A stretch of 49,839 nt of DNA from Planctomycetota bacterium (GCA_038213805.1 JBBQSO010000035.1:1-49839); one strand, 5' to 3'. Shown: positions 1-16,251, counted from the first letter of the stretch. Made by a program: numbers and translations. Notes: a model not told the origin generated them from the letters alone.

Positions 1-697
1 GGTGCACGCGCGGCGCAATTTCTACGACCTGATCGCCATGGAGCCCGCGGCGCTGGCCATGGTCCGTCGCATCGCGGTGCTCTACGGCATCGAGAAGCGA
101 CTGCGCGACGCGCACGCCGATCAGGACGCCATCCGCGCTGCTCGCCAGCGCGAAGCCAAGCCCCACTTGGCGGACATCCGCGCCGAACTTGATCGCCTGG
201 TGCTGGCCACGACGCCGAAGAGTCCGCTCGGCAAGGCCGCCAATTACGCGCTCACCTGCTGGAACGCCCTCATCCGCTACGCGGACACCGGGTTTCTGCC
301 CCTCGACAACAATCTCGCGGAGCGCTCCATCCGCCCCGTCGCCATCGGCCGCAAGAACTACCTGTTCCTCGGCTCAGGCGAAGAAGGCGGTGGAGACTGG
401 GCCGCCATCGCCTACTCGGTAATAGGCTCCTGCGCCCTCAACCACCTCGATCCGCATCGCTACCTCACCGAGATCGCGCCGCATCTGGCCGACTGGCGGT
501 TCACGGACTACGCCAGCCTGACGCCACGAGCCTGGGCCAAGCGCAACGCTAACGCTGTGGCCTGAACCACAACGCAGTATCGGGCGGATTTGATCTAAGC
601 TAGTGGGCTACTTCGGACGGATACGAACATGGTGCCTCCAAACGGCACCATCTATGAAAGTCCGATGGGAGGCTAGTTAGGGCGGCTGAACGCTTAC
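1..697 (+). mobile_element. IS66 family insertion sequence, right portion
   Basis: TnpC is followed by GGCTGAACGCTTAC ending at 697 (reverse complement GTAAGCGTTCAGCC, an IS66-type terminal IR). An alternative IR-like end lies at 624. Confidence 0.8.
2..565 (+). CDS. tnpC: IS66 family transposase TnpC, C-terminal part (5' truncated by window edge)
   Basis: HARRNF, LGKAANY, DNNLAERSIRPVAIGRKNYLFLGS and the SC-LNHLDP-YL tail are characteristic IS66 DDE transposase motifs. Confidence 0.95.
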   Translation: MHARRNFYDLIAMEPAALAMVRRIAVLYGIEKRLRDAHADQDAIRAARQREAKPHLADIRAELDRLVLATTPKSPLGKAANYALTCWNALIRYADTGFLPLDNNLAERSIRPVAIGRKNYLFLGSGEEGGGDWAAIAYSVIGSCALNHLDPHRYLTEIAPHLADWRFTDYASLTPRAWAKRNANAVA

Positions 698-833
698 GGA
701 CGGGGATCGCGTCCCTCGGCCATCTGGGACTTCTCATGACGCTGGGATTCCGCAGTCCACGGAGCGGTGTCGGCGCGGAGTCAACGGTCGACCACAACGA
801 GGTTTCGATTACGCAAACATCCACTTCGAACTT

Positions 834-1163
834 TCATCCAGATTTTCTGAATTTCTCCGGGATTTTATCAACAAGCTCAGACAGGTCTGCTGAATCTGAG
901 ACTTCCAGTTTCAAGTCATCTACCAGGAATTCGCGGAGATCGGCGGCTATTCCTCCAAGGTCACTTATGGTCGGATTAAATCGTATTTGACCGTTGACGT
1001 TGACCAAATTCCACGCACTTCCAGATTCCGAGAACGCATACCACTGGAACTTTCCAACAACGCAATGCGGTTCGATCTGACGTATGAATGTAGAACTGGA
1101 CTCATAAACCCAGAATCCATCATCTGCCCTGACGATGAGCGGTTGAACGTCATTCTCAGTCAT
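834..1163 (-). CDS. Putative Rhs immunity protein (109 aa)
   Basis: ATG (1161-1163) overlaps the Rhs TGA (TGATG coupling), with a GGAAGGAGG RBS upstream. Small, acidic, lower-GC ORF directly after an Rhs C-terminal domain. Confidence 0.8.
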   Translation of the reverse strand: MTENDVQPLIVRADDGFWVYESSSTFIRQIEPHCVVGKFQWYAFSESGSAWNLVNVNGQIRFNPTISDLGGIAADLREFLVDDLKLEVSDSADLSELVDKIPEKFRKSG

Positions 1164-4100
1164 CACCAGCCTCCTTCCAACGGTCGATGATTTCCCATGC
1201 CTTGTCCGGGTGCGGATTCCCCCTTGGCCGCCCTTCTCGGATTGGGATGAGGTTGGGCCCGATGATAATGCGGTGATGTACCAATATTATTTCCAGCCCG
1301 GTTTCCAGTAGGTGCAATCTTGATTGGACCGACTTGATACTCTGAACCATGAGCGCCCCAGAGGCCCCCGAGAGCGGCCGACATGGCGAGCTCACGCCAA
1401 TCGAAGCAATCTTGCAATCCATTGTCGATGAATGTGCCCTGAGCCGCCAAATCGCCGTAAGCGCCAGTCGCAGCGCCAACACCAGCACCGACCAGGATCG
1501 GCACGAGCTTGGACCCTCCTCGGTTGACAACTTGCATGGCCCAGGCTCCCGCTGCTGGAGCGACGAGACCAAAAGTAGCTCCGGCGATTGCGCCAGCAAG
1601 CGCCCCCTTGCCCGCCTCAAGGCCTGCCCGTCTCCAATCGACATTCCGGCCATTCCACAGGTCGCCAACGACACTGATTCCTCCGCTTACGACTGCCCCA
1701 AAAATCGCTCCCACGGCGCCGCTGATCAACCACGCGAATCTACCATCCGGATCGCTTGCCATCGTTGGCATGTTATTCACATAGGCATACAGGTTCGCGC
1801 CCCCCAATTCTCCCACCGGATCACGGCTGAGCCAACCTCCCGCGGAGGGATCGTACGACCTGGAGAACGTCAACCAGAGATTCGAAGTAGAATGCCGGAA
1901 ATGACCAGTGAAACCAATGTCGAATTCCAAGATTCCTGATATGTTGGATCGCGCGCCGTATGGATCGTAGTCGTAACGGACGGTCAACCCTCCCGAAGCA
2001 TCGGTGACCTCGCGAACCGAACCGAGGTGATCCTTCGCGTAAAAATAGTTCACACCAGATATCTGGATTCCATTTGCAAAATAACGCTTCATGACAGTGG
2101 CGCCAGACGAGTCGCGCTCTTCCAAGAGCCTGCTCTCATGCCAAATGTACCTGCGATCTGAAAGCGTCGACCCATTGGCTGATTCGAGGATGCGGACTCG
2201 CCTTCCAAAGCCGTCGTAGGTGAATTCACTGCGCTGATTCCCTGCAGTAATCGATACCAACCTGTCTTCCGCATCCCAGGAAAACGTCCTGACTCCATCA
2301 GTCGTCAAATTCCCATTATCGTCGTATTGCCGCGCGGATCCCGATCCGGTGATGTCCACGGATTTCCAGGCAGTGGACTTGGTGTTTCCCTTCAAGTCCT
2401 TCGCGACGATGGCTATTGAGTTTTGACCGGGCGCAAAGGTGGCCGAGCCGGTGAAGGTCAGGTCGCCATGCACTTCGGCCGGGTTTCCAGCGATCGTCAC
2501 GGTTCCGGGCTCGCTGATCGTCCCGATGATGGGAATCGTCCCGCCTGGGGCGGCACTGGTCAGCTGGTTCAAGGTGTTGTGAGTCCAAGTGGAGATTGCG
2601 GAACCGTTCTGGAAACCCGTTCGGTTACCGTTCACATCGTAGCGGTAGGCCTGTTCGATCCCAGGAAGGCCGGACCCCACATTTCGACGAGCTGAGATCA
2701 GCCGGTCGAGGCCGTCATAGGCGAACTTCCAGGTACTAGGAGCCTGGCCGTCCGCGCTGATGCCCCACTCCTGGATCCGGCCACCAGCGTCACTGACGTA
2801 GGTGTGAGCAGAGATTTCCGCACCCGCGGCCCGCCGATAGTGGATGCCGGCCAGGCGGCTGTCGGAGGAGACCGGAAGGTAATCGAAGCTGGCTGTCATG
2901 CCGTTGGGATAGAGAAGACCGAGCAATCTATCGGTGTTCCCGACGTAGGACGGCGTGAAGGCGCCGAGGGCGTTGGCGATACCCGATGGGCGCCCGAGCG
3001 TATCGTAGGTCACTGATTCCGTGGGTCCGGAGCCGATCTTGCGGGAAACCTGACGCATGAGGGCATCGTAACCGAGAGTGATGGTGTCGTTGTTCAAGGG
3101 GCCATCGATGGTGGCCAGTCCTCCGGCTCCGACCGTGCCGGTCGCGATCGGATAGTAGGTGAACTGGGTCGTTCCCGTGCCATCGACCATGGACGCCACA
3201 CGTGGGTAGATCGGATCGTAGACCACCGAGATCCCCGCCGTGGCGACCACCGCATTCTGGTACGAAGTCGTGAGCACGCGATCATCCTGAGCATAAGTCG
3301 ATTTGGTGATTTGGCCCTTCGGATCGGTGATGGAGTCGATCCGGCCAGAAACCGGCAGGTAGGCCAGCAGGTACCGCTTGCCGTCTGGGAGGTGCTTGGC
3401 CGTCAAACGCCCCATGATGTCGTAGTCCCACCGGGTCATCGCCCCAGTCGCCGACGTGAGGACCTGCAGCTTCCCGCATTTGCACCACTCGTAAAGTGTG
3501 ACGTTCTGGGCGCTGTCCACCACCGCAGTCGGTTGGCCGAGCGCGTTGTGGACGATGTCCGACCAGCGTCCGAGCCGGTCTTTCACGTGCTCGACGTCGA
3601 GACGGCTCCAGACGGTCTGCTCGAACGTGCCATCGGGATAGGTGGTCTTGGTCGGGCGGTCGAGAGCGTCGTAGTCGAAGGTCAGGGCGTGGCCGTCGAC
3701 ATCGGTCGACGTCCTCAGCCGCCCGTAGCCATCGAACGTCACCACCTGCTCGGTGCCGAGCGGATCGCGGACCCGGTCCAAATAGCCGCTCGCGCGGTAG
3801 AGGTAGGTGGTCTTCTCGTTCTTGACGTTGGTGACCGTCTCGATCTGGTTCTTGGCGTTATACGTGAATTTGGTGACGTTGCCCGCAGCGTCCGTGGTGG
3901 TCAGGGGCAGGTGGGCGGCATTGTAGGTCGCCGAGCACAGGACGACGAAGGTGCTGGTACCGGTGCGCTGGCGGACCTCCTTGATGTCAATGCCGTTGGC
4001 ATCTAGCACCGTGTCGGTCGCCCGGCCCAGCGGATCGATGGTGGTGATCGGGATGCCCAGGGAGCTGTAGGCGATCTGGTAGGTCTGGGTGCTCCTGTCA

Positions 4101-6487
4101 TCGAGCAGCCTCGAAATCACCCGGGGCGAGGCCACGGTGGTACCGGTCTCATAGACCGAGGCACTGTTCTGTCCCGGGTAGTGGAACCAGGTCCGCCCGG
4201 TCAGGGGCGGCTTGATGCTCTCGAGCAGGCGGCCGCGCATCCCGTTATTGAGACCGCTGTGCAGCCAGTGGTAGATAATCGCCGCCGTGTAATCACCCGG
4301 GGCCTTGCGCATCGCCTTCTTGTCCCAATAGAAGGTGTTGCGGTAGCTCAGGTACGAATTCCACCACGGCAGATCGCCGGGCAGGAGCGCCGGAGGGCCG
4401 ATGGGATCGGCATCAGGGATGCCGGGCGGGGTCTGGACGAACTCGGCACGCTCGATGTCGCCCTGCGGATCGACCGCTTCGATGTAGGTCTGGTAGTTCA
4501 CGCCGCTGCCGCGGCGGAAGGTGGTGGTTCCGTAGGGCGTGGTCAGACCCGTCATGATGTCGGTGGTGCCGTCGTAGGCGAAGGAGGAGACCATCGCGAG
4601 CGGATCGGTGATCGATGCCAGGTTGCTGCCGTTGTAGGCAAAGCCGGCGGTCCGACCGAAGGGATCGCTGATGTGGTCGACCTTGAAGACATCGTCGCTG
4701 CGGTAGGAGAACGTCGTGACTTGGCCGACGGCGTCGGTGATCTTCTGGATGCGGAAGCCGGAACCCGCGGCCTCATAGGTGATGTTAACGACGTTGCCGC
4801 TGGGGTCGACCATCTGCGACAGATAGATGCGCCGGCCTGCGCCGAGAGCTCCATCACTTTGGGCATAGATCAACCGCTCGCCGTGCGCCAAGGCCAGTTC
4901 ATAGCGCGTCGGTGCGGTCTGCTTGAGGATGCCGCCAGTGTAGGCCTGCGCGGGAGAGGTGCCGGCGGTCAAGGCGTACTGGTAGCTGCCGCCTCCTGAC
5001 TGGTAGACCTCGACAGTCTGCGTCCCGTTGGTCACCGCGGCGCTGTCGATGACGCAACTGATCCAACCGCACGTCCACTTCGACCCGAAGTTGGTGGAGG
5101 TGAAGACCGCCGGCTGCATCGCCTCCTTGTCGCAATAAGCGAGGAGCACCTCGATGTCTGGACCGAGGGGCGGATGATAGGCCAGCGGGATGTCGCTGAC
5201 GCTCAGCGCGGTGAGCATGAGCTGGAAACTGTAGGAAGCCATGCCGCGGTTCGTGCACGAACCGGGCGACCTCATGTCCGCCAGGCCGGTGCCGCGCGGG
5301 TCCGCGGCGGACCCGGTGTTGCCCTTGCCCCAGATGGTGGCGGCCTCGGCGTCGTCCACCGCACTCCACCCGGCCTGCAGCGGGCCGGACGGCACCAGGT
5401 AGGCGCCGCTCGCCTCCTGCTCGATCGCGGCCAGGGGGATGCGCCGCTCCTGGCCCTCGAAGACGTCCATGGTGCGGTCCTGGATGATCGCCTCGTCGCC
5501 GTCGATGCGCATCAGCGCGCTGAAGTGGCCCAGCTTCCAGTGGATGACGGCCGGCGCGATCAGGGCGGCGCCGGGGGCGCGGCGGGCGGCGCGGTAGTCC
5601 AGCTTCAGCTTGTGGGCCAGGTCTCGGACCTGCAGCAAGGACGTACCCTGCTCGGTGGAGGCGAACGCCTCGATCTCGACGAGCTCGGCGGCGTGCGGGT
5701 CGACCAGGCGCTTGAGGTTGGCCACCGCGTACGGACCGCAGCGGAACGACCACTGCGGGTGCGCGCGCATGGTCTCGCGCCCCTCCCGGGCGGCCCGGTA
5801 CTTGTCGCCGCCGGTGCCGCGCAGCTGGCGGTCCCCGACCTCGGCGGCGATCCGGTCGAGCTCTTCGTAGCGGCCGACCCAGGCGTTGAGCAGCGCGTAC
5901 TCGCCGAGCGCGCGGTCGATCAGCGGGTCGGCGGCCGAGGGTTGCTCGCTGCGCCCCGCTTCCCACGCCGCTCGGAAGCGCGCCATGGAACGCGTGTAGA
6001 AGCCGCGCTCGCGGTCGACCAGGCCGAGGTCGAGCAGCAGCGCCGCCCGCCACGGCGAATCAGGGTGGGCGCTCAGGAAACCATCGAACACCGCGCCGTC
6101 ACCGCGCTCGGGCTGGGCCGCGTAGACAACCAGGGCCTGCGCCAGGGCGCGGTTGTCGTCAGCGCCCGCCGCGTGGCTCGGGAACAATGTTTCACGGAAG
6201 ACGCGGGCGCCCGAGATCTCTTCGACGGTGGGCAGGTCAGAGAAGCTCAAGCCCCCGACCACGACCGGGGTGATCACGCCGGCCTGCGCCGGTTCCTCGC
6301 GGACGATCGCGGCCGGTTCCACCGTGGCGACCGGCTCCGGCCTGGACCTGGCCGCCTCGGAGCGCACGCGCGCGGCGAGCGCGCCCGGGTCCTCCTCGGC
6401 CGCCAGCCCGCCCTGACACGAGAACGCCAGCGCCAGCACCCAGGCCGGAGCGGAGAAACGACGCGGGGAACGCTGGGGGGAAGTCAT
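1163..6487 (-). CDS. Rhs/YD-repeat polymorphic toxin with signal peptide, N-terminal C39-like cysteine peptidase, Ig-like insert and C-terminal toxin domain (~1774 aa)
   Basis: Start MTSPQRSPRRF at 6487, 11 nt after the upstream stop, followed by a hydrophobic signal. C39-type triad CGPYAV...HWKLGHF...IQD. Many YD repeats. Rhs core YFYAKDHLGSVR...DPVGELGGANLYAYVNNMPTMASDPDG. The C-terminal domain has Gly-rich hydrophobic helices and a PHYHR...GQGMGNHRP tail. Confidence 0.92.
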   Translation of the reverse strand: MTSPQRSPRRFSAPAWVLALAFSCQGGLAAEEDPGALAARVRSEAARSRPEPVATVEPAAIVREEPAQAGVITPVVVGGLSFSDLPTVEEISGARVFRETLFPSHAAGADDNRALAQALVVYAAQPERGDGAVFDGFLSAHPDSPWRAALLLDLGLVDRERGFYTRSMARFRAAWEAGRSEQPSAADPLIDRALGEYALLNAWVGRYEELDRIAAEVGDRQLRGTGGDKYRAAREGRETMRAHPQWSFRCGPYAVANLKRLVDPHAAELVEIEAFASTEQGTSLLQVRDLAHKLKLDYRAARRAPGAALIAPAVIHWKLGHFSALMRIDGDEAIIQDRTMDVFEGQERRIPLAAIEQEASGAYLVPSGPLQAGWSAVDDAEAATIWGKGNTGSAADPRGTGLADMRSPGSCTNRGMASYSFQLMLTALSVSDIPLAYHPPLGPDIEVLLAYCDKEAMQPAVFTSTNFGSKWTCGWISCVIDSAAVTNGTQTVEVYQSGGGSYQYALTAGTSPAQAYTGGILKQTAPTRYELALAHGERLIYAQSDGALGAGRRIYLSQMVDPSGNVVNITYEAAGSGFRIQKITDAVGQVTTFSYRSDDVFKVDHISDPFGRTAGFAYNGSNLASITDPLAMVSSFAYDGTTDIMTGLTTPYGTTTFRRGSGVNYQTYIEAVDPQGDIERAEFVQTPPGIPDADPIGPPALLPGDLPWWNSYLSYRNTFYWDKKAMRKAPGDYTAAIIYHWLHSGLNNGMRGRLLESIKPPLTGRTWFHYPGQNSASVYETGTTVASPRVISRLLDDRSTQTYQIAYSSLGIPITTIDPLGRATDTVLDANGIDIKEVRQRTGTSTFVVLCSATYNAAHLPLTTTDAAGNVTKFTYNAKNQIETVTNVKNEKTTYLYRASGYLDRVRDPLGTEQVVTFDGYGRLRTSTDVDGHALTFDYDALDRPTKTTYPDGTFEQTVWSRLDVEHVKDRLGRWSDIVHNALGQPTAVVDSAQNVTLYEWCKCGKLQVLTSATGAMTRWDYDIMGRLTAKHLPDGKRYLLAYLPVSGRIDSITDPKGQITKSTYAQDDRVLTTSYQNAVVATAGISVVYDPIYPRVASMVDGTGTTQFTYYPIATGTVGAGGLATIDGPLNNDTITLGYDALMRQVSRKIGSGPTESVTYDTLGRPSGIANALGAFTPSYVGNTDRLLGLLYPNGMTASFDYLPVSSDSRLAGIHYRRAAGAEISAHTYVSDAGGRIQEWGISADGQAPSTWKFAYDGLDRLISARRNVGSGLPGIEQAYRYDVNGNRTGFQNGSAISTWTHNTLNQLTSAAPGGTIPIIGTISEPGTVTIAGNPAEVHGDLTFTGSATFAPGQNSIAIVAKDLKGNTKSTAWKSVDITGSGSARQYDDNGNLTTDGVRTFSWDAEDRLVSITAGNQRSEFTYDGFGRRVRILESANGSTLSDRRYIWHESRLLEERDSSGATVMKRYFANGIQISGVNYFYAKDHLGSVREVTDASGGLTVRYDYDPYGARSNISGILEFDIGFTGHFRHSTSNLWLTFSRSYDPSAGGWLSRDPVGELGGANLYAYVNNMPTMASDPDGRFAWLISGAVGAIFGAVVSGGISVVGDLWNGRNVDWRRAGLEAGKGALAGAIAGATFGLVAPAAGAWAMQVVNRGGSKLVPILVGAGVGAATGAYGDLAAQGTFIDNGLQDCFDWRELAMSAALGGLWGAHGSEYQVGPIKIAPTGNRAGNNIGTSPHYHRAQPHPNPRRAAKGESAPGQGMGNHRPLEGGW

Positions 6488-6498
6488 GGCACGCCTTT

Positions 6499-9400
6499 TC
6501 AGGGAGTCTGGACGAGGAAGGAGGGCGACGTGATGGTGATCGTCGGAGGAGTCGTGTCGGTGGGACTGGGCGCTGGCCACGAGGAGACGCGCGGATCGAG
6601 CGGCAGCACGTCGACGCCGTCGGGAACGCCATCGCCATCCGAATCGGCGTTGAAGACGCTCGTCCCCCGTTGGCGCTCGACCAGGTTCGACACGCCATCG
6701 CCGTCCGCGTCGGGGTTGACGGGGTCCAGCCCGGTGCCCGCGTAGCCATCGTCGGGGATGCCGTCGTCGTTGGTGTCGACCTTGTGCGGGTTGGTGCCCA
6801 TCGCGTACTCCTCCCACCCGGCCAGGTTGTCGCCGTCCGCGTCGAAGGACGTGGCGTCGCCCTGGACGACGAAGAGGGCGCCGTTCCTGACGATCAGGCT
6901 GAAGTCCTTCGGGCACTTCGGCTGCGTCCCGGCCGCGGCGGAGCGGTCGCCGTACCAGATCGGGGTCGCGGACGACGCCGGCTGGCCGGCGTTGTCGAGC
7001 AGCAACGTCCCGAACACCGTCCCATTCTTCTGCACGTAGATCGTGCCAGCTCCGCCGACACCGACCGCCGACCCGGCGATCGAGCCGCCCGCTGCCGAGA
7101 ACTTCGCGACATCGACGGTTCCGCTGGCGTAGGTCAGCGCGATGCGCCCACCCCCACCGCTCAGATCGGAGCAGGATCCCCCCCGCGCGCTGATCGTCCC
7201 CGCCCCGCTGAAAGTCGTCACCGACAGGTTCACCCCGCCCCCAGCTCCGCCGCCGTACCTGCCCCCGCCCTGACCATCGGCCACGATCGTTCCTGCGAGC
7301 ACCAGGCTGCTGGCGCTGATGCGGACGAGACCGCCGCCCGCCATCAGGTAGTCTGCCGCGCCTCCCGAGCCGTTCATCTGCGGATCGTCGAAGGCCCCGT
7401 ACACCTCATTGTAGACGTCGGGAACGTATTGCGCACCATATCCTCCATGACCGGCCGCGTTGTACCGTACGCTCGCGCCGAGCGTCGTCGGACCGGCGGC
7501 GCTCCAGGTGTAACCAGGGCGCAGACCACAACCGGTCGCATCGATGCGGCTGGTCGCATCGATGGAGACCGCGCCGACCACGGTGAGTCGGAGCGCGGTG
7601 GCGACCGTGGGAGTGCAAGGGCTCTGGAACAGGGCAGAATTGTTGCTGATGGTGATGGAGGTAGCAGAGAAGACATCGGTCGAAGCGGCGGCGAAATCCC
7701 GCACGGTCAGGTTTCCGGGCCAGGCGGCAGGATCGTCGGCCAGGGTCGCACGGTCGCCGAACCACAACGGCGTCGGCGCCGCCATGGGCGCCAGCGTTGC
7801 ATTGGCGACGATGAGCTGGCCGCCAGCATCGCTGGATTTCTTGAGGTAGATCGTGCCGGCGCCGCCGACGCCGCTGGGCGACCCGGCGATCATGCCACCC
7901 GCCGCGGAGATCCTGGTGATGTCCACGGTGCCGCTCGTGTAGTTCAGTGCGATGCGTCCGCCACCACCGCTGAAGTGCATGCACGAACCACCCTTCGCAC
8001 TGATGGTCCCGGAATTTGCGAACGTGCTCACGGAGATGGCGATGCTTCCCCCAGCGGCACCCCCGTCGTAACCGGTACCCTGACCATCCGCGAGGATGCC
8101 TCCTGCCAGATTCAGGGTGCCTGCGGTGATTCGTACCACGCCGCCGCCCGCCTGCGCGTTCTCCACCGCACCTCCAGACCCGTTGGTGTCCGGATCGAGG
8201 AACGATCCGTACGCCTCATTAACCACACCCGAGGAGTATTGGCATCCGAAGCCTGCGTGCGTTCCAGCTGAGTGGTTGGTGCTGGCCCCGATCGTCGTCG
8301 GCCCACCGACGCTCCAGGTGCAACCGGCGCGCAGCCCGCAGCCGGTGGCATCGATCCTGCTGGTGTTGTCGATGGCGACCGTTCCGGCGATCACGAGCTT
8401 CAACCGGGTGGCGGTGGTGGCGGTGCAGAGGTACGGGCGCAAGACGCCGCCCGTGGCGAGAGTGAGCGAAATCGCGGAGAAGGCGTCGGTGGCAGCTGCT
8501 GCGGAATCCTTCACCAACAGGCTCCCGGACCACGCAGCCGGATCGTCCGCGAGCGTCGCCCGGTCGCCGAACCACAACGGCGTCGGCGGGGCGGCGGGCA
8601 CTTGCAAATCGTTGGACACGATCAGTTGGCCGCCCGCGTCGCTGGTCTTCTTGAGGTAGATCGTCCCTGCACCGCCCGTGTACGTGGGAGAGCCAGCAAG
8701 ACACCCACCCGCCGCCGTGACTTTGAGCGTGGAGGGCGAGCCACCGGAGTAGGTGAAGGCGATCCGACCGCCGCCGCCGCAACTCTTGTTGCAGGTGCCG
8801 CCCTTGGCGCTGATCGTCCCCGTCCCGATGATCGCGCCGGCGACGAGGCTGATGCCGCCACCCGCCCCTCCGCCGGAAAGGGCCCCGCCCTGGCCGTCGG
8901 CCACGATCTGCCCGGATAGGTTCAGGGTCCCGCAGACGACGCGCAGCAACCCTCCGCCATCGCAGTGGAAGCTGGCGCCACCACCCGCTCCGCAGAACGC
9001 GGGGTCGAGGAAGGAGTCGTAGACCTCGCTCTGCACCTCGGTGGTGTAGGGGACGCCGTAGCCGCCATGGCTCGCGCCCGAACTCCCGAGGCTACCTCCG
9101 GTGGTGGTCGGGCCGAGCGGACCCCAGGTGTATCCGGCCGGAAGACCGCATCCGGTGGCGTCGATCGCGCTGGACGCGTCGATGGCGAGCTCACCGGTGA
9201 CGGTCAACTGCAGCCGCGTCCCGTCCGAGATGGTCGCGGGCACCGGCCGGATAGCCCCCCCGGTGGTAAGGCTGACCGATGCCGCGGTGAGGTTCGCAAA
9301 CGAGGCCCGAGCAGACGTGGTGACTGAAAGCTGACCGCTCCAGGGCGTGGGATCATCGGCGGCGACCCCGCGCTCACCGAACCAGATCGGCGTGGACTTG

Positions 9401-12400
9401 GCACCGGCGACCAGTCCGCTCCCGGCGATGAGCAGGACGCCAGCGGGCGCCGCAGGGGTGCGCAGAAAGATGCTGCCGGCTCCGCCTGAACCGAGCGCAT
9501 ATGCCGCGCCCATGCTGCCGCCCGCCGCGCTGATCCGGGTCGCGTCGATCGTGCCCGTGGTGACCGAGACGGCGATGCGCCCGCCACCTCCGCTCGAGTA
9601 GTACACCGATCCCCCCTTCGCGGAGATCGTTCCGGACCCCCCCAGTGTACCGAGGGTGAGTGCGATGCTGCCACCCGCGCTTCCCGCATAACGATCGGAA
9701 CCCTGGCCATCGGCCAGTATGCGGCCGTTGAGGGTCAAGGTGCCAGCGCTGACTCGGACAACCCCTCCTCCGCTGAAGCCGAAGCCGACCGATCCACCGC
9801 CACCGCTGGTGCTCGGATCCTGGAAGTCTCCGTAGACCTCGGCCAGGTTGCCGTTGGGATCGTTGTTGTAGCCATAGCCTCCGTGGCTCCCCGCGTTGTA
9901 GATGGTCGCCGCACCGTTGGTGGTGGGTCCCGAGGGACTCCTGGTGTATCCGGGCAGGTACCCCTTGCCGCTGGCGTCGATCTTGCCGTTCGCGTCGACG
10001 AAGACCTGAGACGCCACGGTCATCTGAACCGCCCCGGTCGCCGTGGCGGTGGGAGGGACGGGGACGATCGCGCCGGTCCCCAGGATGCGCACGCCGAAGT
10101 ACGCGTGCGCGCCGTCCATGGTCACCGTGGTGCTGTCGACGATCAGGATGCCGCCATCTTCCGGCGCGTCGGCCGGAGTGATCGCGAGGGGCGTGGTGAT
10201 GACCTGGATCGGGTACTCCCGCACCACCTTGTGCTTGCCGTCGCTGACGGTCAGCGCGAGGACCTTGCCGGCGTACGTGCGCAGGTCCGCGGTCAAGGTG
10301 GCGGTGGTCGACAGCACGCCGACGTAGTAGATCTCCCACTTGTAGGTGAGGGTGTCGCCATCCGGGTCGGTGCTGGCGCTGGCGTCGAAGGTGGCGGTGG
10401 TCGTGGCGGTGGTGATCGGGGCGAGGGTCACGCGCACGTCGGGGGCGCGGTTCTCGTAATCGATGACCGTGACCACGCCGCCCGATCCGGCGGCCACCCA
10501 GTAGGACGGATCGGTATGCACCGTGACCGCGGTGACGGTGTCGCCCTTCCACACCGCGTCGCCGACCGCGACCAGCGGCAGGACCAGGGCCGCTGTTCCG
10601 GCGGGGAGGACGACGGTGGCGGGCATGGCGACCAGGTTGACGCCCGCCTGGGCGGTGCCGCTGTAGCCGAGGTGGACGGTCAGCGCCGCGGCGGTCGAGC
10701 CGGTGCGGCGCAGGGTGAGCAGGGCCGGATCGCCACCTTCGCGAGCGGTGCCGCGAGTGACCGCCAACGCCACGCCGGTGGCCGCGTCGACGATCACGAC
10801 CTGCGCGGACGAGGGCGCGGACACCGCGTAAACTGTTCCCGACAGGACGGTGGCGATCACCGTCTCGTCGCCCTCGACCAGGCTGTCGGCGAGTGGTGCG
10901 ACGGGGACGGGCACGCTGGTGACGTTGGCGGCGAAGGCGACGATGGTGGGCAGCGCGGCGTAATCGCTTCCGCTGGTGGCGGTGCCGCTGATGGCCAGGT
11001 TGACGGTGATCGCCGCGTTCGGGTTGCCCAGCCGGGTGAGCGTGAAGACCCCCGCGTGCAGGCCCTGTTCGAGCGCCTGCGGGTCGCTGGCGGCGATCGC
11101 GATGGCGGCCGGTTCGTCGTCGAGGATCGCGACGGTCGCCGTGGTCGCGGCGCCCAGGGTGTACCCGGACCCGGCCACCAGGCCCAGGACCACCGTCTCG
11201 GCGGGCTCGAGGACGGCATCGTTGAGCGGCGACACGGTCACCACCGCGCTCGCGGCGCCGGCGGGGATGGTCACGGAGGTCGGCGGGGCCGCGTAGTCGG
11301 CCCCAGGCACCGCCGTTCCGGAGACCACCAGCGGGATGGTGATGGCGGTGCGGAGGTCGCCCAGGCGCGAGACCGTGAAGGTGCCGGTGCCGAAGCCGGC
11401 GCCGGGCTCCGACGCCTGGGCGTCGGTGGCGGCGATGGTCACCAGCGGCAGGTCGTTGTCGTTGATGGTCACGGTCGCCGACGGCGTGGCGCCGAGGGTG
11501 TAGTCGCCCTGCGCCAGGGCGGTGAGGACGACCGTCTCGGGACCTTCGACGAGCGCGTCGTCGACCGGGGTGATGGCCACGGTGGCGGTGGCGGCGTTGG
11601 CCGGGATGGTGACCGACCCGGTGGGGGCCAGGTAGTCGGCGCCGGGGGTGGCGGTGCCACCCACCGCATAGGCCACGGTGAGCGGGGTCGCGGCCGCGGG
11701 GCTGCGCGTGAAGGTGACGGTGCCGCTCGCGCCGCCCTCCAGGGCGGTCGGCGCGGTGGCGGTGGCGGAGAGGGTCGGCAGGGTCGCCGAGGCGTCCAGC
11801 AGCTGTACGGTGGCTTGGCTCTGGCCGATGATCGCGTAGCCGGGCTGCGCGGTGAGCGTGACCACCACCGTCTCGATCGGCTCGGCCGCGGCATCGGTCT
11901 TCGGCACCACCGCGATGGTCGCGCTCGCCGCGTTGGCCGGGATGGTGATCGACCCGGACAGCGCCGTGTAGTCGGTGCCGGCGGTCGCCGTCCCCGTGAC
12001 CGCGTACAGGACGATGAGGGCGGCGGTGAGGTTGGTCGAGGTGCGCACCACCGTGATGGAGCCGATGTCCGCAGTGCCTTCGCGCGCCGCGTCGTTGGCC
12101 ACGGCGAGCGAGACCGCCTGCTCGTCGTCGGCGATGGTGACCGTCGCAGTGCTGGAGGCGCCGAGCGTGTAGCCCGCACCGGCGGCGACCTGCACCACCA
12201 CCGTCTCCGGCCCCTCGGGGAGGGCGTCGTCGAGCGGCGTGACCGCCACCGTGGCCGATGCGGCGCCCGCGGCGATGATCGCGGTCGCGGGCAGCGCCAG
12301 GTAGTCCGTGCCCGGGGTCGCCGTGCCGCCGACCGTCAACGCAACCGTCAGCGCGGCGGCGAGGGAACCAGTGCGGGAGACCTTCACCTGACCCGCGTGC

Positions 12401-13176
12401 AGCGGACCGGCTTCGCGGGCGTTGGCGTCGCTCGCGACGATCGTGACCACCTGCGCATCGTCGTCCTTGATGGTGATCGTGCCGCTGATGGTGCTGCCGA
12501 GGGCGTAGCCCGCGCCGGCGAGCAGGGTGGGGACCACGGTCTCGGACGGCTCCGACTCCTGGTCGTCCAGGGCGGTCACGACCACGCTCGCCGAAGCGGC
12601 GCCCGGAGCGAGGTAGACCAGCGGCTCCGGCGCCTGGTAGTCGCGGCCCGGGGTCGCGGTGCCCGTGAAGGCCACGCCGACGTACAGGGCCCCGGCGAGG
12701 TCGCCGGTGCGCGTGACGGTGAACCGGCCGGTGTCGGTGCCCGGCTCGCTGGCCGTGCCGTCGGCGATGGCCAGCGTCACCACCGGCAGGTCGTCGTCGA
12801 GCAGGGTGATGGTCGCCGCCGCTGGCGTCCCGACGGTGTAGGCGGCATCGGGCTGGACGGTCAGCACCACCGTCTCGCCCGGCTCGGCCACCGCGTCGTC
12901 GATGGGCAGCAGGTCGACGGTGACGCTGGTGGCGTTGGCCGGGATCGTCACCGTCGCGGGCAGCGCGACCGCGTCGACACCCGGCGACCAGGTGCCGCTG
13001 GCGGCGAGCTTGACGACCAGAGCCGCGCTGGTGGCGGCGGCGCGGGCCACGCTGTAGTGACCCGTCACCGCCCCCGACTCGGGGATGCTTGGGGTGGTCG
13101 TGGTGACAGAGACGGTTTCCACGCCGTGCGCGCTGGGTGCGCATGCCAGGAGCACGAAGGCGAGCATGCGCATCAT
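6499..13176 (-). CDS. Giant secreted surface protein/adhesin: 8 Calx-beta-like domains, PKD/Ig domain, 4 Gly-rich ~270-aa repeats, C-terminal DxDGDG Ca-binding repeats (~2225 aa)
   Basis: Likely start MMRMLAFVLLACAPSAHG (GAGGTG RBS, signal peptide). Repeated 'A-E...F-V-R...V-GTATPG-DY...DD-E-ETVV-T...Y--G...ATVTI-DDD' units, TFDASASTDPDGDTLTYKW (PKD-like), and DTNDDGIPD/DADGDGVSN/DSDGDGVPDG repeats. Alternative start at 13266. Confidence 0.88.
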   Translation of the reverse strand: MMRMLAFVLLACAPSAHGVETVSVTTTTPSIPESGAVTGHYSVARAAATSAALVVKLAASGTWSPGVDAVALPATVTIPANATSVTVDLLPIDDAVAEPGETVVLTVQPDAAYTVGTPAAATITLLDDDLPVVTLAIADGTASEPGTDTGRFTVTRTGDLAGALYVGVAFTGTATPGRDYQAPEPLVYLAPGAASASVVVTALDDQESEPSETVVPTLLAGAGYALGSTISGTITIKDDDAQVVTIVASDANAREAGPLHAGQVKVSRTGSLAAALTVALTVGGTATPGTDYLALPATAIIAAGAASATVAVTPLDDALPEGPETVVVQVAAGAGYTLGASSTATVTIADDEQAVSLAVANDAAREGTADIGSITVVRTSTNLTAALIVLYAVTGTATAGTDYTALSGSITIPANAASATIAVVPKTDAAAEPIETVVVTLTAQPGYAIIGQSQATVQLLDASATLPTLSATATAPTALEGGASGTVTFTRSPAAATPLTVAYAVGGTATPGADYLAPTGSVTIPANAATATVAITPVDDALVEGPETVVLTALAQGDYTLGATPSATVTINDNDLPLVTIAATDAQASEPGAGFGTGTFTVSRLGDLRTAITIPLVVSGTAVPGADYAAPPTSVTIPAGAASAVVTVSPLNDAVLEPAETVVLGLVAGSGYTLGAATTATVAILDDEPAAIAIAASDPQALEQGLHAGVFTLTRLGNPNAAITVNLAISGTATSGSDYAALPTIVAFAANVTSVPVPVAPLADSLVEGDETVIATVLSGTVYAVSAPSSAQVVIVDAATGVALAVTRGTAREGGDPALLTLRRTGSTAAALTVHLGYSGTAQAGVNLVAMPATVVLPAGTAALVLPLVAVGDAVWKGDTVTAVTVHTDPSYWVAAGSGGVVTVIDYENRAPDVRVTLAPITTATTTATFDASASTDPDGDTLTYKWEIYYVGVLSTTATLTADLRTYAGKVLALTVSDGKHKVVREYPIQVITTPLAITPADAPEDGGILIVDSTTVTMDGAHAYFGVRILGTGAIVPVPPTATATGAVQMTVASQVFVDANGKIDASGKGYLPGYTRSPSGPTTNGAATIYNAGSHGGYGYNNDPNGNLAEVYGDFQDPSTSGGGGSVGFGFSGGGVVRVSAGTLTLNGRILADGQGSDRYAGSAGGSIALTLGTLGGSGTISAKGGSVYYSSGGGGRIAVSVTTGTIDATRISAAGGSMGAAYALGSGGAGSIFLRTPAAPAGVLLIAGSGLVAGAKSTPIWFGERGVAADDPTPWSGQLSVTTSARASFANLTAASVSLTTGGAIRPVPATISDGTRLQLTVTGELAIDASSAIDATGCGLPAGYTWGPLGPTTTGGSLGSSGASHGGYGVPYTTEVQSEVYDSFLDPAFCGAGGGASFHCDGGGLLRVVCGTLNLSGQIVADGQGGALSGGGAGGGISLVAGAIIGTGTISAKGGTCNKSCGGGGRIAFTYSGGSPSTLKVTAAGGCLAGSPTYTGGAGTIYLKKTSDAGGQLIVSNDLQVPAAPPTPLWFGDRATLADDPAAWSGSLLVKDSAAAATDAFSAISLTLATGGVLRPYLCTATTATRLKLVIAGTVAIDNTSRIDATGCGLRAGCTWSVGGPTTIGASTNHSAGTHAGFGCQYSSGVVNEAYGSFLDPDTNGSGGAVENAQAGGGVVRITAGTLNLAGGILADGQGTGYDGGAAGGSIAISVSTFANSGTISAKGGSCMHFSGGGGRIALNYTSGTVDITRISAAGGMIAGSPSGVGGAGTIYLKKSSDAGGQLIVANATLAPMAAPTPLWFGDRATLADDPAAWPGNLTVRDFAAASTDVFSATSITISNNSALFQSPCTPTVATALRLTVVGAVSIDATSRIDATGCGLRPGYTWSAAGPTTLGASVRYNAAGHGGYGAQYVPDVYNEVYGAFDDPQMNGSGGAADYLMAGGGLVRISASSLVLAGTIVADGQGGGRYGGGAGGGVNLSVTTFSGAGTISARGGSCSDLSGGGGRIALTYASGTVDVAKFSAAGGSIAGSAVGVGGAGTIYVQKNGTVFGTLLLDNAGQPASSATPIWYGDRSAAAGTQPKCPKDFSLIVRNGALFVVQGDATSFDADGDNLAGWEEYAMGTNPHKVDTNDDGIPDDGYAGTGLDPVNPDADGDGVSNLVERQRGTSVFNADSDGDGVPDGVDVLPLDPRVSSWPAPSPTDTTPPTITITSPSFLVQTP
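6950..10000 (-). repeat. Four intragenic ~810-bp (270-aa) glycine-rich repeats
   Basis: The TP(L/I)W(F/Y)G anchor recurs near 6954, 7761, 8571 and 9381. Each unit has IDA(S/T)G(K/C)G..HGG/HAG..YG-F-DP..GSGG..GGGGRIA..GGAG(T/S)I(Y/F). Boundaries are approximate. Confidence 0.85.
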
Positions 13177-13609: not shown

Positions 13610-14959
13610 ATGGCCGGAGATGCCGCGATCGAGAGCCTGCGCGCCGCGCTGGCGCTGTCCCCCGACAACCTGCCGCTGCACCGCCTGCTTGCGGACAGCC
13701 TGCTCGGCCAGGGGCGGGCGGAGGAGGCCGAGCAGGAGTACCGCCGCGCGCTGGCGCGCTGGGCCGACAACCAGGACTTGAAGGTCGGCCTGGCCACCGC
13801 CTTCGAGCAGCAGGGCAAGGCCAGCCACGCCCAGGTGGTGCTTGAGGAGCTGTGCGGGCGGCCCGACGCGCAGGCCAAGGGCCTGGTGCTGCTGGCGCGG
13901 CTGCTGGCGCGCGGCGGCGAGGCGGAGGCCGAGCGCGCGGCGCGCACCTACCGCCGCGCCGTGGCGGCCGACCCCGCGGTCGCCGACGACACCCTGGCGG
14001 GGCAGTTGGGCGTGCGCGCGGCGCCGGCCCGCGGTCCGGACGACGACGGCCGCGAGCGCCTGCGCCACGTCGAGGGCGGGGACGGCGCCCACGTCGAGGT
14101 CGAGCGCCCGCGCATCGCCTTCGCCGAGGTCGGCGGTATGGAATCGGTCAAAGAGGAGATCCGCCTCAAGATCATCCACCCGCTCAAGCACCCCGAACTC
14201 TACAAGGCCTATGGCAAGAGCACCGGCGGTGGCATTTTGATGTATGGGCCGCCTGGCTGCGGGAAGACCCACCTGGCGCGCGCGACCGCCGGCGAGATCA
14301 AGGCCGGTTTCATGGCCGTGGGCATCGACGAGGTGCTGGACATGTACATCGGGCAGAGCGAGCGCAACCTGCACGAGCTCTTCGAGCAGGCGCGACGCAA
14401 CCAGCCATGCGTGCTGTTCTTCGACGAGGTCGACGCGCTCGCCGCCAGCCGTACCGATCTCAAGCAGAGCGCCGGCCGCCAGGTCATCAACCAGTTCCTT
14501 GCCGAGCTCGACGGCGTGCAGTCCTCCAACGATGGGGTGCTGGTGCTGGCGGCGACCAATGCGCCCTGGCACCTTGACGCCGCCTTCCGCCGGCCGGGGC
14601 GCTTTGATCGCATCCTGTTCGTGCCGCCACCGGACGAGACCGGGCGGGCCGAGATCCTACGCGTGCTGTTGCGCGGCAAGCCGGTGGATGCGCCCGACCT
14701 TGCCGCAATCTCGAAGCGTACAGCGGAATTCTCGGGGGCCGATCTCAAGGCGCTGCTCGACCTCGCCATTGAGGACAAGCTGACCCAGGCGATGCGCGAC
14801 GGTGTGCCGCGACCGCTCACCACCAAGGACCTGATCGCGGCGGCCGGACGGCTCAAGCCGAGCACGCGCGAATGGTTCTCGTCAGCGCGCAACTACGCGC
14901 TCTATGCGAACCAGGGCGGCGCCTACGACGACGTCCTGAAGTATCTGGGCCGCAAGTGA
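13610..14959 (+). CDS. AAA+ ATPase with N-terminal TPR region
   Basis: Walker A GPPGCGKT, Walker B LFFDEVD, SRH AATNAPWHLDAAFRRPGRFD, TPR-like N-terminus, GAGGT RBS. Confidence 0.92.
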   Translation: MAGDAAIESLRAALALSPDNLPLHRLLADSLLGQGRAEEAEQEYRRALARWADNQDLKVGLATAFEQQGKASHAQVVLEELCGRPDAQAKGLVLLARLLARGGEAEAERAARTYRRAVAADPAVADDTLAGQLGVRAAPARGPDDDGRERLRHVEGGDGAHVEVERPRIAFAEVGGMESVKEEIRLKIIHPLKHPELYKAYGKSTGGGILMYGPPGCGKTHLARATAGEIKAGFMAVGIDEVLDMYIGQSERNLHELFEQARRNQPCVLFFDEVDALAASRTDLKQSAGRQVINQFLAELDGVQSSNDGVLVLAATNAPWHLDAAFRRPGRFDRILFVPPPDETGRAEILRVLLRGKPVDAPDLAAISKRTAEFSGADLKALLDLAIEDKLTQAMRDGVPRPLTTKDLIAAAGRLKPSTREWFSSARNYALYANQGGAYDDVLKYLGRK

Positions 14960-16251
14960 GCGGCAGTGCCCAGCGCGCCCGGCTGCTGCTTGGTCAGCAG
15001 CGCTACGACCTCGCCGAACAAGAATGGCGCAAGGTCCTGGGCGAGGATCCGGACGACGCCGAGGCGCACGCCGGGTTGGCGCTGTGCCTGTGCGAGCGCG
15101 AACGCTTCGACGAGGCGGAGGCCGAGTCCCGCTTGGCACTGGCGGCTGCGCCGCGCGCGGACTTCGTCCACTACGTCAGTGCCCACGTGCTGCGCGCGCG
15201 CAAGCGCTTCGCCGAGGCGCACGCGGCCATCGCAGAAGCCATCGCGCTCGACCCGCACGACGCCGACTATCGCGCTTTCCTCGCTGGGCTGCATGCGCAG
15301 CGCGCGGAGTGGTCTGAATGCCTGGTTGCCGCCGACGCCGGATTGGCACTCGATCCCGAAAGTGACGGCTGCGCCAACTGGCGCGCCCTCGCTCTCACCC
15401 ATCTCGATCGCCGCGACGAGGCCGGCGAGGCCATCGCTGGCGCGCTGGCGCGTTCACCCGAAAATTCCCTGACCCACGCCAACCAGGGCTGGGCGCTGCT
15501 GCACCGTAGCCAGCCGAAGGAGGCGCTGGGCCACTTCCGCGAGGCGCTGCGGCTGGATCCAAGCAACGACTGGGCGCGCGAGGGCCTGCTGACTGCGCTC
15601 AAGGCGCACAACCCGCTCTACCGCCAGGTCCTCGCCTTCCTGCTGTTCATGAGCCGTCAGGGTGCGCTCGCGCGCTGGGGCATCGCCATCGGCCTGGTAT
15701 TCGGCCAGCAGCTGCTCGACGGCTTGGCCAGGGCGAACCCCTCGCTGGCGTTGGTGCTCTACCCGTTGTTCTACCTCCTGCTCGCCTGCATCTTCCTGAC
15801 GTGGCTCGCCAACCCGTTGATGAACCTGGCAATGCGCGCGCACCCCGACGGCCGCCATGCCTTGACCGCGGACCAGCGTGGACAATCGACCCTGATCGCG
15901 CTGTGTCTCTGCGTTGCTGCGCTCAGCCTGATCTTCGAAGTCCTGCACGGGATCCCCCATCGCCCCAGCATGATGCTGATGTTCCTGACCATTCCGATCA
16001 TCGCGGTGCACAATGGCGAGCGCGGCTGGCCACGCCTGGTCGCTGGCGGCGTGGCCACGGCCTTTGCCGTCATGGCCGCGATCGTTGCGACCACCTACCA
16101 TATCGGGGACTGGCTGCAGGAGCACCATCAGCGTGCAACCGTGGCGGTGCTGCTGGCCATGTCCGTGCGCATCATCGGCTTTTACTTCATCGGCATCCTG
16201 GCGTGGTCGTTCCTTGGGCCGATGCTGAACCGCGTCGAGCCGACGCGCTAG
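14956..16251 (+). CDS. TPR-repeat protein with C-terminal multi-pass membrane domain
   Basis: GTG start overlaps the AAA stop (GTGA). TPR motifs (AIALDPHDA, ALRLDPSN) are followed by about 6 hydrophobic segments. Confidence 0.88.
   Translation: MSGSAQRARLLLGQQRYDLAEQEWRKVLGEDPDDAEAHAGLALCLCERERFDEAEAESRLALAAAPRADFVHYVSAHVLRARKRFAEAHAAIAEAIALDPHDADYRAFLAGLHAQRAEWSECLVAADAGLALDPESDGCANWRALALTHLDRRDEAGEAIAGALARSPENSLTHANQGWALLHRSQPKEALGHFREALRLDPSNDWAREGLLTALKAHNPLYRQVLAFLLFMSRQGALARWGIAIGLVFGQQLLDGLARANPSLALVLYPLFYLLLACIFLTWLANPLMNLAMRAHPDGRHALTADQRGQSTLIALCLCVAALSLIFEVLHGIPHRPSMMLMFLTIPIIAVHNGERGWPRLVAGGVATAFAVMAAIVATTYHIGDWLQEHHQRATVAVLLAMSVRIIGFYFIGILAWSFLGPMLNRVEPTR

Follow-up and report, generated by a model that had tools for sequence, protein, structure and literature searches.

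An Ig-like domain split between a giant protein and the shell of an Rhs toxin as a candidate docking point in a Planctomycetota locus

In chaperone–usher pili, as in the strand exchange of type V pili, an immunoglobulin (Ig)-like fold lacking one strand is completed by another polypeptide; pilins without their last (G) strand receive an N-terminal extension. In Tc toxins, the large partner TcA, a pentameric helical translocator, binds a domain that interrupts the Rhs-type cocoon of TcB–TcC, and this TcB docking domain is a β-propeller. In type VI secretion systems (T6SSs), an Ig-like/TTR domain of VgrG has been modeled or shown to hold an Rhs or other effector by β-strand addition (VgrG15–Tse15 model; VgrG–Tle1); as described in PMC11461821, it is the carrier that bears the Ig-like domain, whereas the N-terminal clade domain of the effector donates the strand. 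Sec-dependent Rhs/YD toxins, such as WapA and the bacterial teneurin-like proteins, combine a signal peptide, a YD shell around a polymorphic toxin, and a downstream immunity gene (PMC13018210), with their binding domains (BIG, TTR, FN-plug, NHL) in that one chain. Here, we analyzed a 49,839-nucleotide stretch of DNA from a Planctomycetota bacterium (GCA_038213805.1 JBBQSO010000035.1:1-49839; hereafter, the window), in which an Rhs toxin gene directly follows a gene for a giant multidomain protein.

In our judgment, the evidence stands evenly balanced on whether this locus is a two-protein, T6SS-independent polymorphic toxin in which a binding protein docks on the Rhs cage through an insert completed by the binding protein's own tail. 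Under this proposal, the first gene would encode a Sec-exported multidomain binding protein whose body is exchangeable between lineages and whose sole conserved part would be a set of TSP3 repeats, a proline-rich linker, and a tail representing an A/A' strand with nothing after it. The second gene would encode a Sec-exported Rhs cage with a helical region, a C39 fold, a variable toxin, and an insert missing exactly the A/A' strand. The partner tail would fill the vacant edge of the insert by donor-strand complementation, or β-strand addition, and the cage would thereby be tethered to an extended binding protein responsible for recognizing the target. Observed, as described below, are the anatomy of the two genes, its conservation, their synteny, and the joint presence or absence of insert and tail; we infer that the proteins dock, where they do so, that they reach the cell surface, and that the giant acts as an adhesin.

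The giant partner gene (6499..13176, minus strand) encodes 2225 amino acids beginning MMRMLAF, within an open reading frame (ORF) that stays open up to 13947. Its N-terminus is signal-peptide-like, as judged by eye from the sequence without a predictor, and Pfam assigns it six Calx-beta stretches, a PKD domain, and TSP3-type repeats; these domain families suggest an adhesin. The protein closes with a conserved C-terminal cassette (residues 2098-2225; 6502..6885, minus strand), in which calcium-binding repeats of the TSP3 type are joined by a Pro-rich linker to the proposed donor strand, the tail DTTPPTITITSPSFLVQTP (6502..6558, minus strand; A/A' of a Big/Glucodextran_B-type Ig fold). The stretch reads ...WPAPSPTDTTPPTITITSPSFLVQTP and then stops (stop codon 6499-6501). 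An earlier sequence-only reading of this DNA had placed the end of the giant here, and minus-strand translation of 6499-6558 bears this out: the tail is the true C-terminus, with no domain after it. The Rhs ATG lies at 6487, 11 nucleotides past the giant's stop codon.

The same tail, 17-19 residues in length, occurs at the very C-terminus of six further proteins, namely P0008, P0010, and P0026 and the upstream ORFs of loci L003, L004, and L006. A search with the last 526 residues of the giant gave at least 120 homologues; among the matches listed, P0008, P0010, and P0026 cover 97-99% of this query, and all three end alike. The residues D, T, P, I, and P do not vary across the seven tails (a seven-row alignment, window included); all seven proteins stop 5-7 residues beyond the invariant last Pro. 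The motif opens a complete Ig-like domain at nine places in homologous giants, as expected from its previous description as a typical first strand. Pfam returned no Ig family for the tails, which are too short, and only TSP3 at an E value of about 0.01. One tail copy and one insert copy are present in the window.

The tail could conceivably be left over, without meaning, from an Ig domain that was truncated, or be produced by misassembly or a frameshift, and adjoin the insert by coincidence. The Rhs frame is open for 143 codons upstream of its ATG, overlapping the end of the giant, which could suggest a frameshift; however, the Arg-rich sequence of these codons comes from reading GC-rich DNA off-frame. 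The position of the stop relative to the motif recurs in the six other proteins, which come from at least three phyla, and the Rhs N-termini are signal-peptide-like in all five of the gene pairs described below. Given the conserved stop position, a frameshift or truncation artefact was rejected, and we consider a coincidental remnant highly improbable.

The proposed acceptor of the tail lies within the Rhs protein (1163..6487, minus strand; 1774 amino acids from the ATG at 6487 to a stop codon at 1163-1165). It is a 66-residue, six-stranded Ig-like insert (residues 1315-1380; 2348..2545, minus strand) that separates one YD hairpin from the next and precedes the RHS-associated core by about 130 residues, and YD repeats flank it on both sides (RHS_repeat, PF05593, E 1.6e-37 in five stretches). 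Its minus-strand translation equals the 66 residues that the sequence-only reading had quoted as interrupting the shell. Scanned alone, the insert matches Glucodextran_B (PF09136) at 29.7 bits against a cut-off of 27, compared with 21.5 bits within the whole Rhs protein, and it covers only profile positions 18-75 of 83. The family was matched in 8 of 14 Rhs relatives scanned, all beginning at profile positions 18-22; a stand-alone copy of the domain in P0089 covers positions 4-82. An AlphaFold2 model of Rhs residues 1231-1420, computed from a 26-row alignment, reached a predicted local distance difference test (pLDDT) score of 90.8 and renders the insert as six strands. From the partial profile coverage, the six modeled strands, and the conservation, we conclude that the insert is a conserved Ig-like sandwich lacking its N-terminal A/A' segment, in agreement with the earlier view of an Ig-like domain without its first strand.

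An exhaustive search with Rhs residues 1231-1420 retrieved, from clusters at 50% identity, 4893 representatives at E ≤ 0.001, of which 1217 reach E ≤ 1e-10. Among the 149 best cluster representatives, 121 span the whole query, and the insert profile matches 149 of 149, a count that is partly circular because the profile was built from 121 of the same rows. A word-indexed search with residues 1270-1420 yielded the query itself as the sole match among 1911 candidates. When compared with solved structures, the insert alone gave no significant sequence match (best E 0.082) and the complete domain of P0089 gave none, while a fold search with the 190-residue model retrieved YD-shell structures only and is uninformative on the insert.

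Tail and insert are complementary in sequence. The complete domain of P0089 starts PLVVDITSPAAGSLTNSPT, aligning with PTITITSPSFLVQTP, and its first 19 residues match the tail. Aligned by hhalign to the complete-domain alignment, the insert profile occupies columns 19-83 (E 5.8e-7) and the tail profile columns 1-15 (E 7.9e-5), although the latter placement is partly circular because nine of the ten template rows were picked by a tail-derived regular expression. In sequence terms, the comparison supports tail and insert together tiling one Ig-like domain. The prior claim that two genes encode one Ig fold is supported in part: the genes are a conserved, tightly spaced pair whose sequences tile the domain, and entry of the strand into the insert is a proposal.

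The presence of the tail follows that of the insert across loci. Genome contigs were scanned with a narrower eight-row alignment (A3), alignment A1 being too diverse, which gave 76 loci; the insert profile matches 12 of these, and the Rhs N-terminal profile matches 8 (L003, L004, L006, L007, L013, L024, L038, and L044). The co-occurrence set comprised the window and the seven loci with readable upstream DNA, L007 being excluded as its upstream DNA falls beyond the locus. Each full-length Rhs gene that bears the insert (window, L003, L004, L006, and L013) has an ORF with TSP3 repeats and tail upstream (5/5), ending 7-34 nucleotides before the Rhs start in all five pairs, of which L013 is the divergent one. 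The three insert-less genes (L044, L038, and L024), which show a clean gap at the insert site, have no tail-bearing partner (0/3), and six-frame ORFs within about 10 kb gave no TSP3 or tail match. Upstream of these lie a 2065-residue ORF without a Pfam family (L038), housekeeping-like ORFs (L024), or no large ORF (L044). The co-occurrence expected by the sequence-only reading was thus observed among loci of this Rhs type. In a tree that is a quick tree only, the insert-less genes occupy two places: L038 groups with L024 (support 99), and the neighbor of L044 is P0265, which carries the insert (support 97). Two separate positions imply at least two changes; on this tree, the insert was lost at least twice.

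The partners themselves share little else. By blastp, similarity between the window giant and the L003, L004, and L006 partners is confined to residues 2098-2199, and the bodies are unrelated: Calx-beta (window, P0008, and P0026), RCC1 propellers with FN3/CHB_HEX_C (L004 and L003), PA14/LamG (L006), LamG (L013), and cadherin/Ig/PKD (P0010). Only the C-terminal cassette of TSP3 repeats and tail is common to them. Since the partners have this cassette in common, the genes are closely spaced, and insert and tail are lost together, the two genes very likely form a functional pair.

Whether such a pair makes physical contact is a further question. One alternative holds that the two proteins are co-expressed and act in one process with no direct tether, the tail serving as a sorting, secretion, or envelope-anchoring signal or in self-association of the giant, and the joint loss reflecting exchange of operon variants. 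The giant and the Rhs protein each have their own signal-peptide-like N-terminus, only about two independent losses support the link, and no fused giant–Rhs protein was found among proteins of 3106-5000 residues, which is weak evidence. On the other hand, the tail fits no C-terminal sorting signal known to us, having neither a hydrophobic helix with a basic tail nor an aromatic last residue; the partners share the cassette alone and always lie directly upstream of this Rhs type; and the complex prediction for tail and insert exceeded all three of its controls by at least 0.31. We regard the absence of a direct tether as distinctly unlikely.

For that prediction, insert residues 80-155 of alignment A1 were combined with tail residues 25-59 of A4. 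The pair scored 0.50, the best of three controls 0.19, and the runs agreed in at least 94% of contacts with a partner pLDDT of at least 61; the verdict was weak support. In calibration, 116 of 157 solved complexes passed, as did 2 of 215 mismatched pairs; only 18 of the 157 solved complexes, but both passing mismatches, did so with a score of 0.60 or under. These counts hold only roughly here because we supplied our own alignments. The prediction, which the sequence-only reading had put forward as a check, thus separates the pair from its controls but stays in the weak zone and gives no interface.

Several points weigh against docking by donor-strand completion. According to the tool, most complex scores in this zone mislead, except where the pairing was probable beforehand, and, with no interface in the output, the position of the tail at the vacant edge is not given. 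AlphaFold2 folds the insert without a partner at pLDDT 80-98. There is also a purely geometric reason for the missing strand: an Ig domain inserted into a loop needs both of its ends on one side, and dropping strand A puts them there, so the missing strand is explicable without a donor. This reason is compatible with docking, yet it weakens the missing-strand argument taken alone. The co-occurrence rests on eight loci and about two independent losses; at L013, the tail is a variant (...NYGVLVTEPKLNLNLP) without the DTTPP motif, and the insert is detected only at relaxed thresholds (independent E value, 1e-5). Truncated or orphan insert-bearing Rhs pieces (L002, L005, L008, and later L007 copies) lack such a neighbor, as does the weak case L009. 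The pattern would look no different if the operon had been gained or lost as a whole, or if the tail docked at another, clade-specific surface. Finally, neither the giant nor the Rhs protein has an evident route across the outer membrane.

Docking elsewhere brings the N-terminal region of the Rhs protein into consideration. This N-terminus reads as signal-peptide-like from its sequence. An AlphaFold2 model of residues 30-600 (mean pLDDT 78.3) orders the region as helical repeats (about residues 88-262; 5702..6226, minus strand), a peptidase C39 fold (about residues 269-384; 5336..5683, minus strand), a disordered linker, and the start of the shell. Foldseek matched the C39 fold to 6mpz, 3b79, 5xe8, and 3zua with target-normalized template modeling (TM) scores of 0.60-0.69. 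The window Rhs scores 18 bits for C39 in Pfam, below the cut-off of 22, and three of six full-length relatives scanned score 24-32 bits. The triad residues are present in the window protein, with Cys in RCGPYAV, His in GHFSAL, and Asp in QD. Among 19 relatives, His and Asp are kept in all 19 and Cys in 15, with Ser or Ala in its place (alignment A5, Rhs residue ~251) in P0174, P0223, P0170, and L003. The model and these residues point to a C39-fold domain with a Cys-His-Asp set in the Rhs N-terminus.

Such a domain offers an alternative site for the tail. In this explanation, the two proteins form a complex through the cassette of TSP3 repeats and tail, with the tail docking on the C39 domain, the helical N-terminus, or the shell, and the insert is self-sufficient, for instance binding a ligand or gating the cage. 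Extended peptides are bound by C39 domains, and the structure most similar in fold, 6mpz, shows a C39 protease together with its leader peptide; replacement of Cys in 4 of 19 relatives with His and Asp retained recalls non-catalytic C39-like binding domains. The confident fold of the insert alone and the weak tail–insert score also speak for this alternative. However, C39 peptidases recognize a double-glycine motif, which is found in none of the seven tails, and a tail-bearing partner is missing from the three insert-less genes (L044, L038, and L024) even though all of them retain the helical region and the C39 domain. Moreover, the segment absent from the insert is precisely the one that the tail resembles in sequence. 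We consider docking at one of these other sites unlikely. Given the sequence complementarity and the persistence of the C39 region without a partner, the insert is favored as the docking site, the docking step being inferred, and the tail would most likely dock by completing the insert as a donor strand.

The proposed arrangement resembles chaperone–usher assembly in that an incomplete Ig-like fold and a foreign strand would form a stable, non-covalent link between secreted subunits. It differs in that the first (A/A') strand is absent, the donor is a C-terminal tail, and the accepting domain interrupts a toxin cage instead of forming a pilin, with no polymer implied. A scan of the 49 other ORFs of the window (E ≤ 1e-5) found no PapD-like chaperone or usher family. 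The locus would thus work like donor-strand complementation, yet it falls outside the chaperone–usher family.

Compared with the VgrG systems described in PMC11461821, the polarity is reversed: here, the Ig-like domain would sit inside the Rhs shell and the strand would be the C-terminus of the carrier. The locus is also without a VgrG or PAAR domain or T6SS genes, and both proteins look Sec-exported. A reading of the Rhs protein as T6SS cargo was rejected, since it carries no PAAR, VgrG, or T6SS-loading Pfam family and its N-terminus reads as a signal peptide; Pfam found no T6SS genes among the 49 other ORFs.

With Tc toxins, the locus shares a homologous shell and C-terminal core. Neither a β-propeller docking domain nor a pentameric helical translocator was found here, and the partners are arrays of β-rich binding domains. 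A Tc (ABC) toxin was rejected on the grounds that TcA-type translocator and β-propeller families are absent from both proteins and that similarity is confined to the shell end. In contrast to WapA and teneurin-like proteins, whose binding domains belong to the same chain, the binding part here would be a separate gene product. A teneurin-like assignment was rejected given the lack of NHL or related Pfam matches, the helical and C39 N-terminus, and only a weak match to 9ifo.

Literature searches found no description of a tail–insert arrangement for Rhs proteins, and terms for donor-strand complementation alongside Rhs came up only incidentally, in reviews. A word search of PMC13018210 returned no C39 domain and no Calx-beta partner, and passages of PMC3482391 mention C39 only as a toxin domain. 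The statement in the sequence-only reading that this coupling mode is undescribed for Rhs delivery stands insofar as none was found in print, but it needs qualifying because strand addition to Ig-like/TTR domains in T6SSs, the nearest precedent, is already described, in reversed polarity (PMC11461821).

The family described here is large, as its 4893 clusters attest. For an Rhs toxin without T6SS, PAAR, or VgrG parts, a domain completed in trans would explain how the toxin cage is aimed and why unrelated partners share only a cassette of 60-120 residues. More tentatively, and somewhat short of an even prospect, a widespread, T6SS-independent form of plug-and-socket Rhs delivery may operate in Acidobacteriota, Verrucomicrobiota, and other little-studied phyla, with the short strand at the end of each of a set of interchangeable giant receptor-binding proteins completing the split Ig domain of the cage. 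In that event, targeting modules and toxin cages could shuffle independently, and a cage without a socket would carry its own binding insert, as L044 hints. The tail–insert pair would also be a compact peptide–domain pair that might serve as a protein-coupling tag.

The shell around the insert is of recognizable Rhs type. TIGR01643 matches the Rhs protein at 93.5 bits, with a copy at residues 1404-1434. The protein matches 24 solved Rhs/Tc sequences, the best matches to solved Rhs structures beginning past the insert, at residues 1383-1397; YenC2, TccC3, and TccC2 match residues 1473-1586. The RHS repeat-associated core domain (residues 1507-1582; 1742..1969, minus strand) matches TIGR03696 at 61.3 bits against a cut-off of 32.5 and ends in a DPxG-type motif that precedes the toxin, as aligned to solved Rhs and TcC shell ends. 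The variable C-terminal region that follows (residues 1583-1774; 1166..1741, minus strand) is the presumed toxin; it is Gly/Ala-rich and glycine-zipper-like, has low GC content at third codon positions (GC3), and gave no family match in Pfam and TIGR family scans. A 110-residue acidic ORF (834..1166, minus strand) overlaps the Rhs stop by 4 nucleotides and, by position only, is a candidate immunity gene; it had no family match. After the core, Rhs relatives carry Colicin_M, PAD (protein-arginine deiminase), Peptidase_M91, DUF6973, or a weak LHH nuclease match, and these varied toxin ends occur in P0174, P0210, P0242, P0149, and L013. The Colicin_M domain suggests bacterial targets.

Base composition shifts over the same end of the gene. 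GC drops from about 0.62-0.75 to 0.51-0.59 in window positions 601-2400, and Rhs GC3, at 0.71-0.99 up to codon ~1400, is about 0.6 in the codons after it, where the insert has just ended. Positions 2-565 hold a fragment of an IS66 transposase. The region looks like a swapped C-terminal toxin/immunity cassette whose junction adjoins the insert. Two genes lie divergently upstream of the giant (13610-16251, plus strand), one for an AAA ATPase that contains TPR repeats and one for a TPR protein. A promoter and terminator scan performed no better than on shuffled sequences.

The giant also contains four Gly-rich modules of ~190 amino acids without a Pfam family (7200-9700, minus strand; giant residues about 1160-1990), with the motif ..GYTW..GGGVVRV..ADGQG..ISAKGGS..GGGGRIA..GGAGTIYLK. 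These modules have hundreds of homologues in giant proteins across many phyla. RHS repeats occur in the same chain in 13 of the 120 homologues among the matches listed (P0043, P0049, P0059, P0065, P0072-P0075, P0084, P0085, P0089, P0094, and P0121), indicating that Gly-rich modules are elsewhere also fused to Rhs shells.

Two of the related loci have unusual Rhs genes. At L044 (6050-11455, plus strand), residues about 1380-1545 form a different β-rich insertion without a Pfam family or a partner gene, about 70-230 residues beyond the usual insert site; it may be a binding module in the same chain. At L007 (30-12225, plus strand), a single Rhs gene of this type, broken up over several reading frames, precedes two more Rhs pieces that carry the insert, and the whole looks like an orphan-cassette array.

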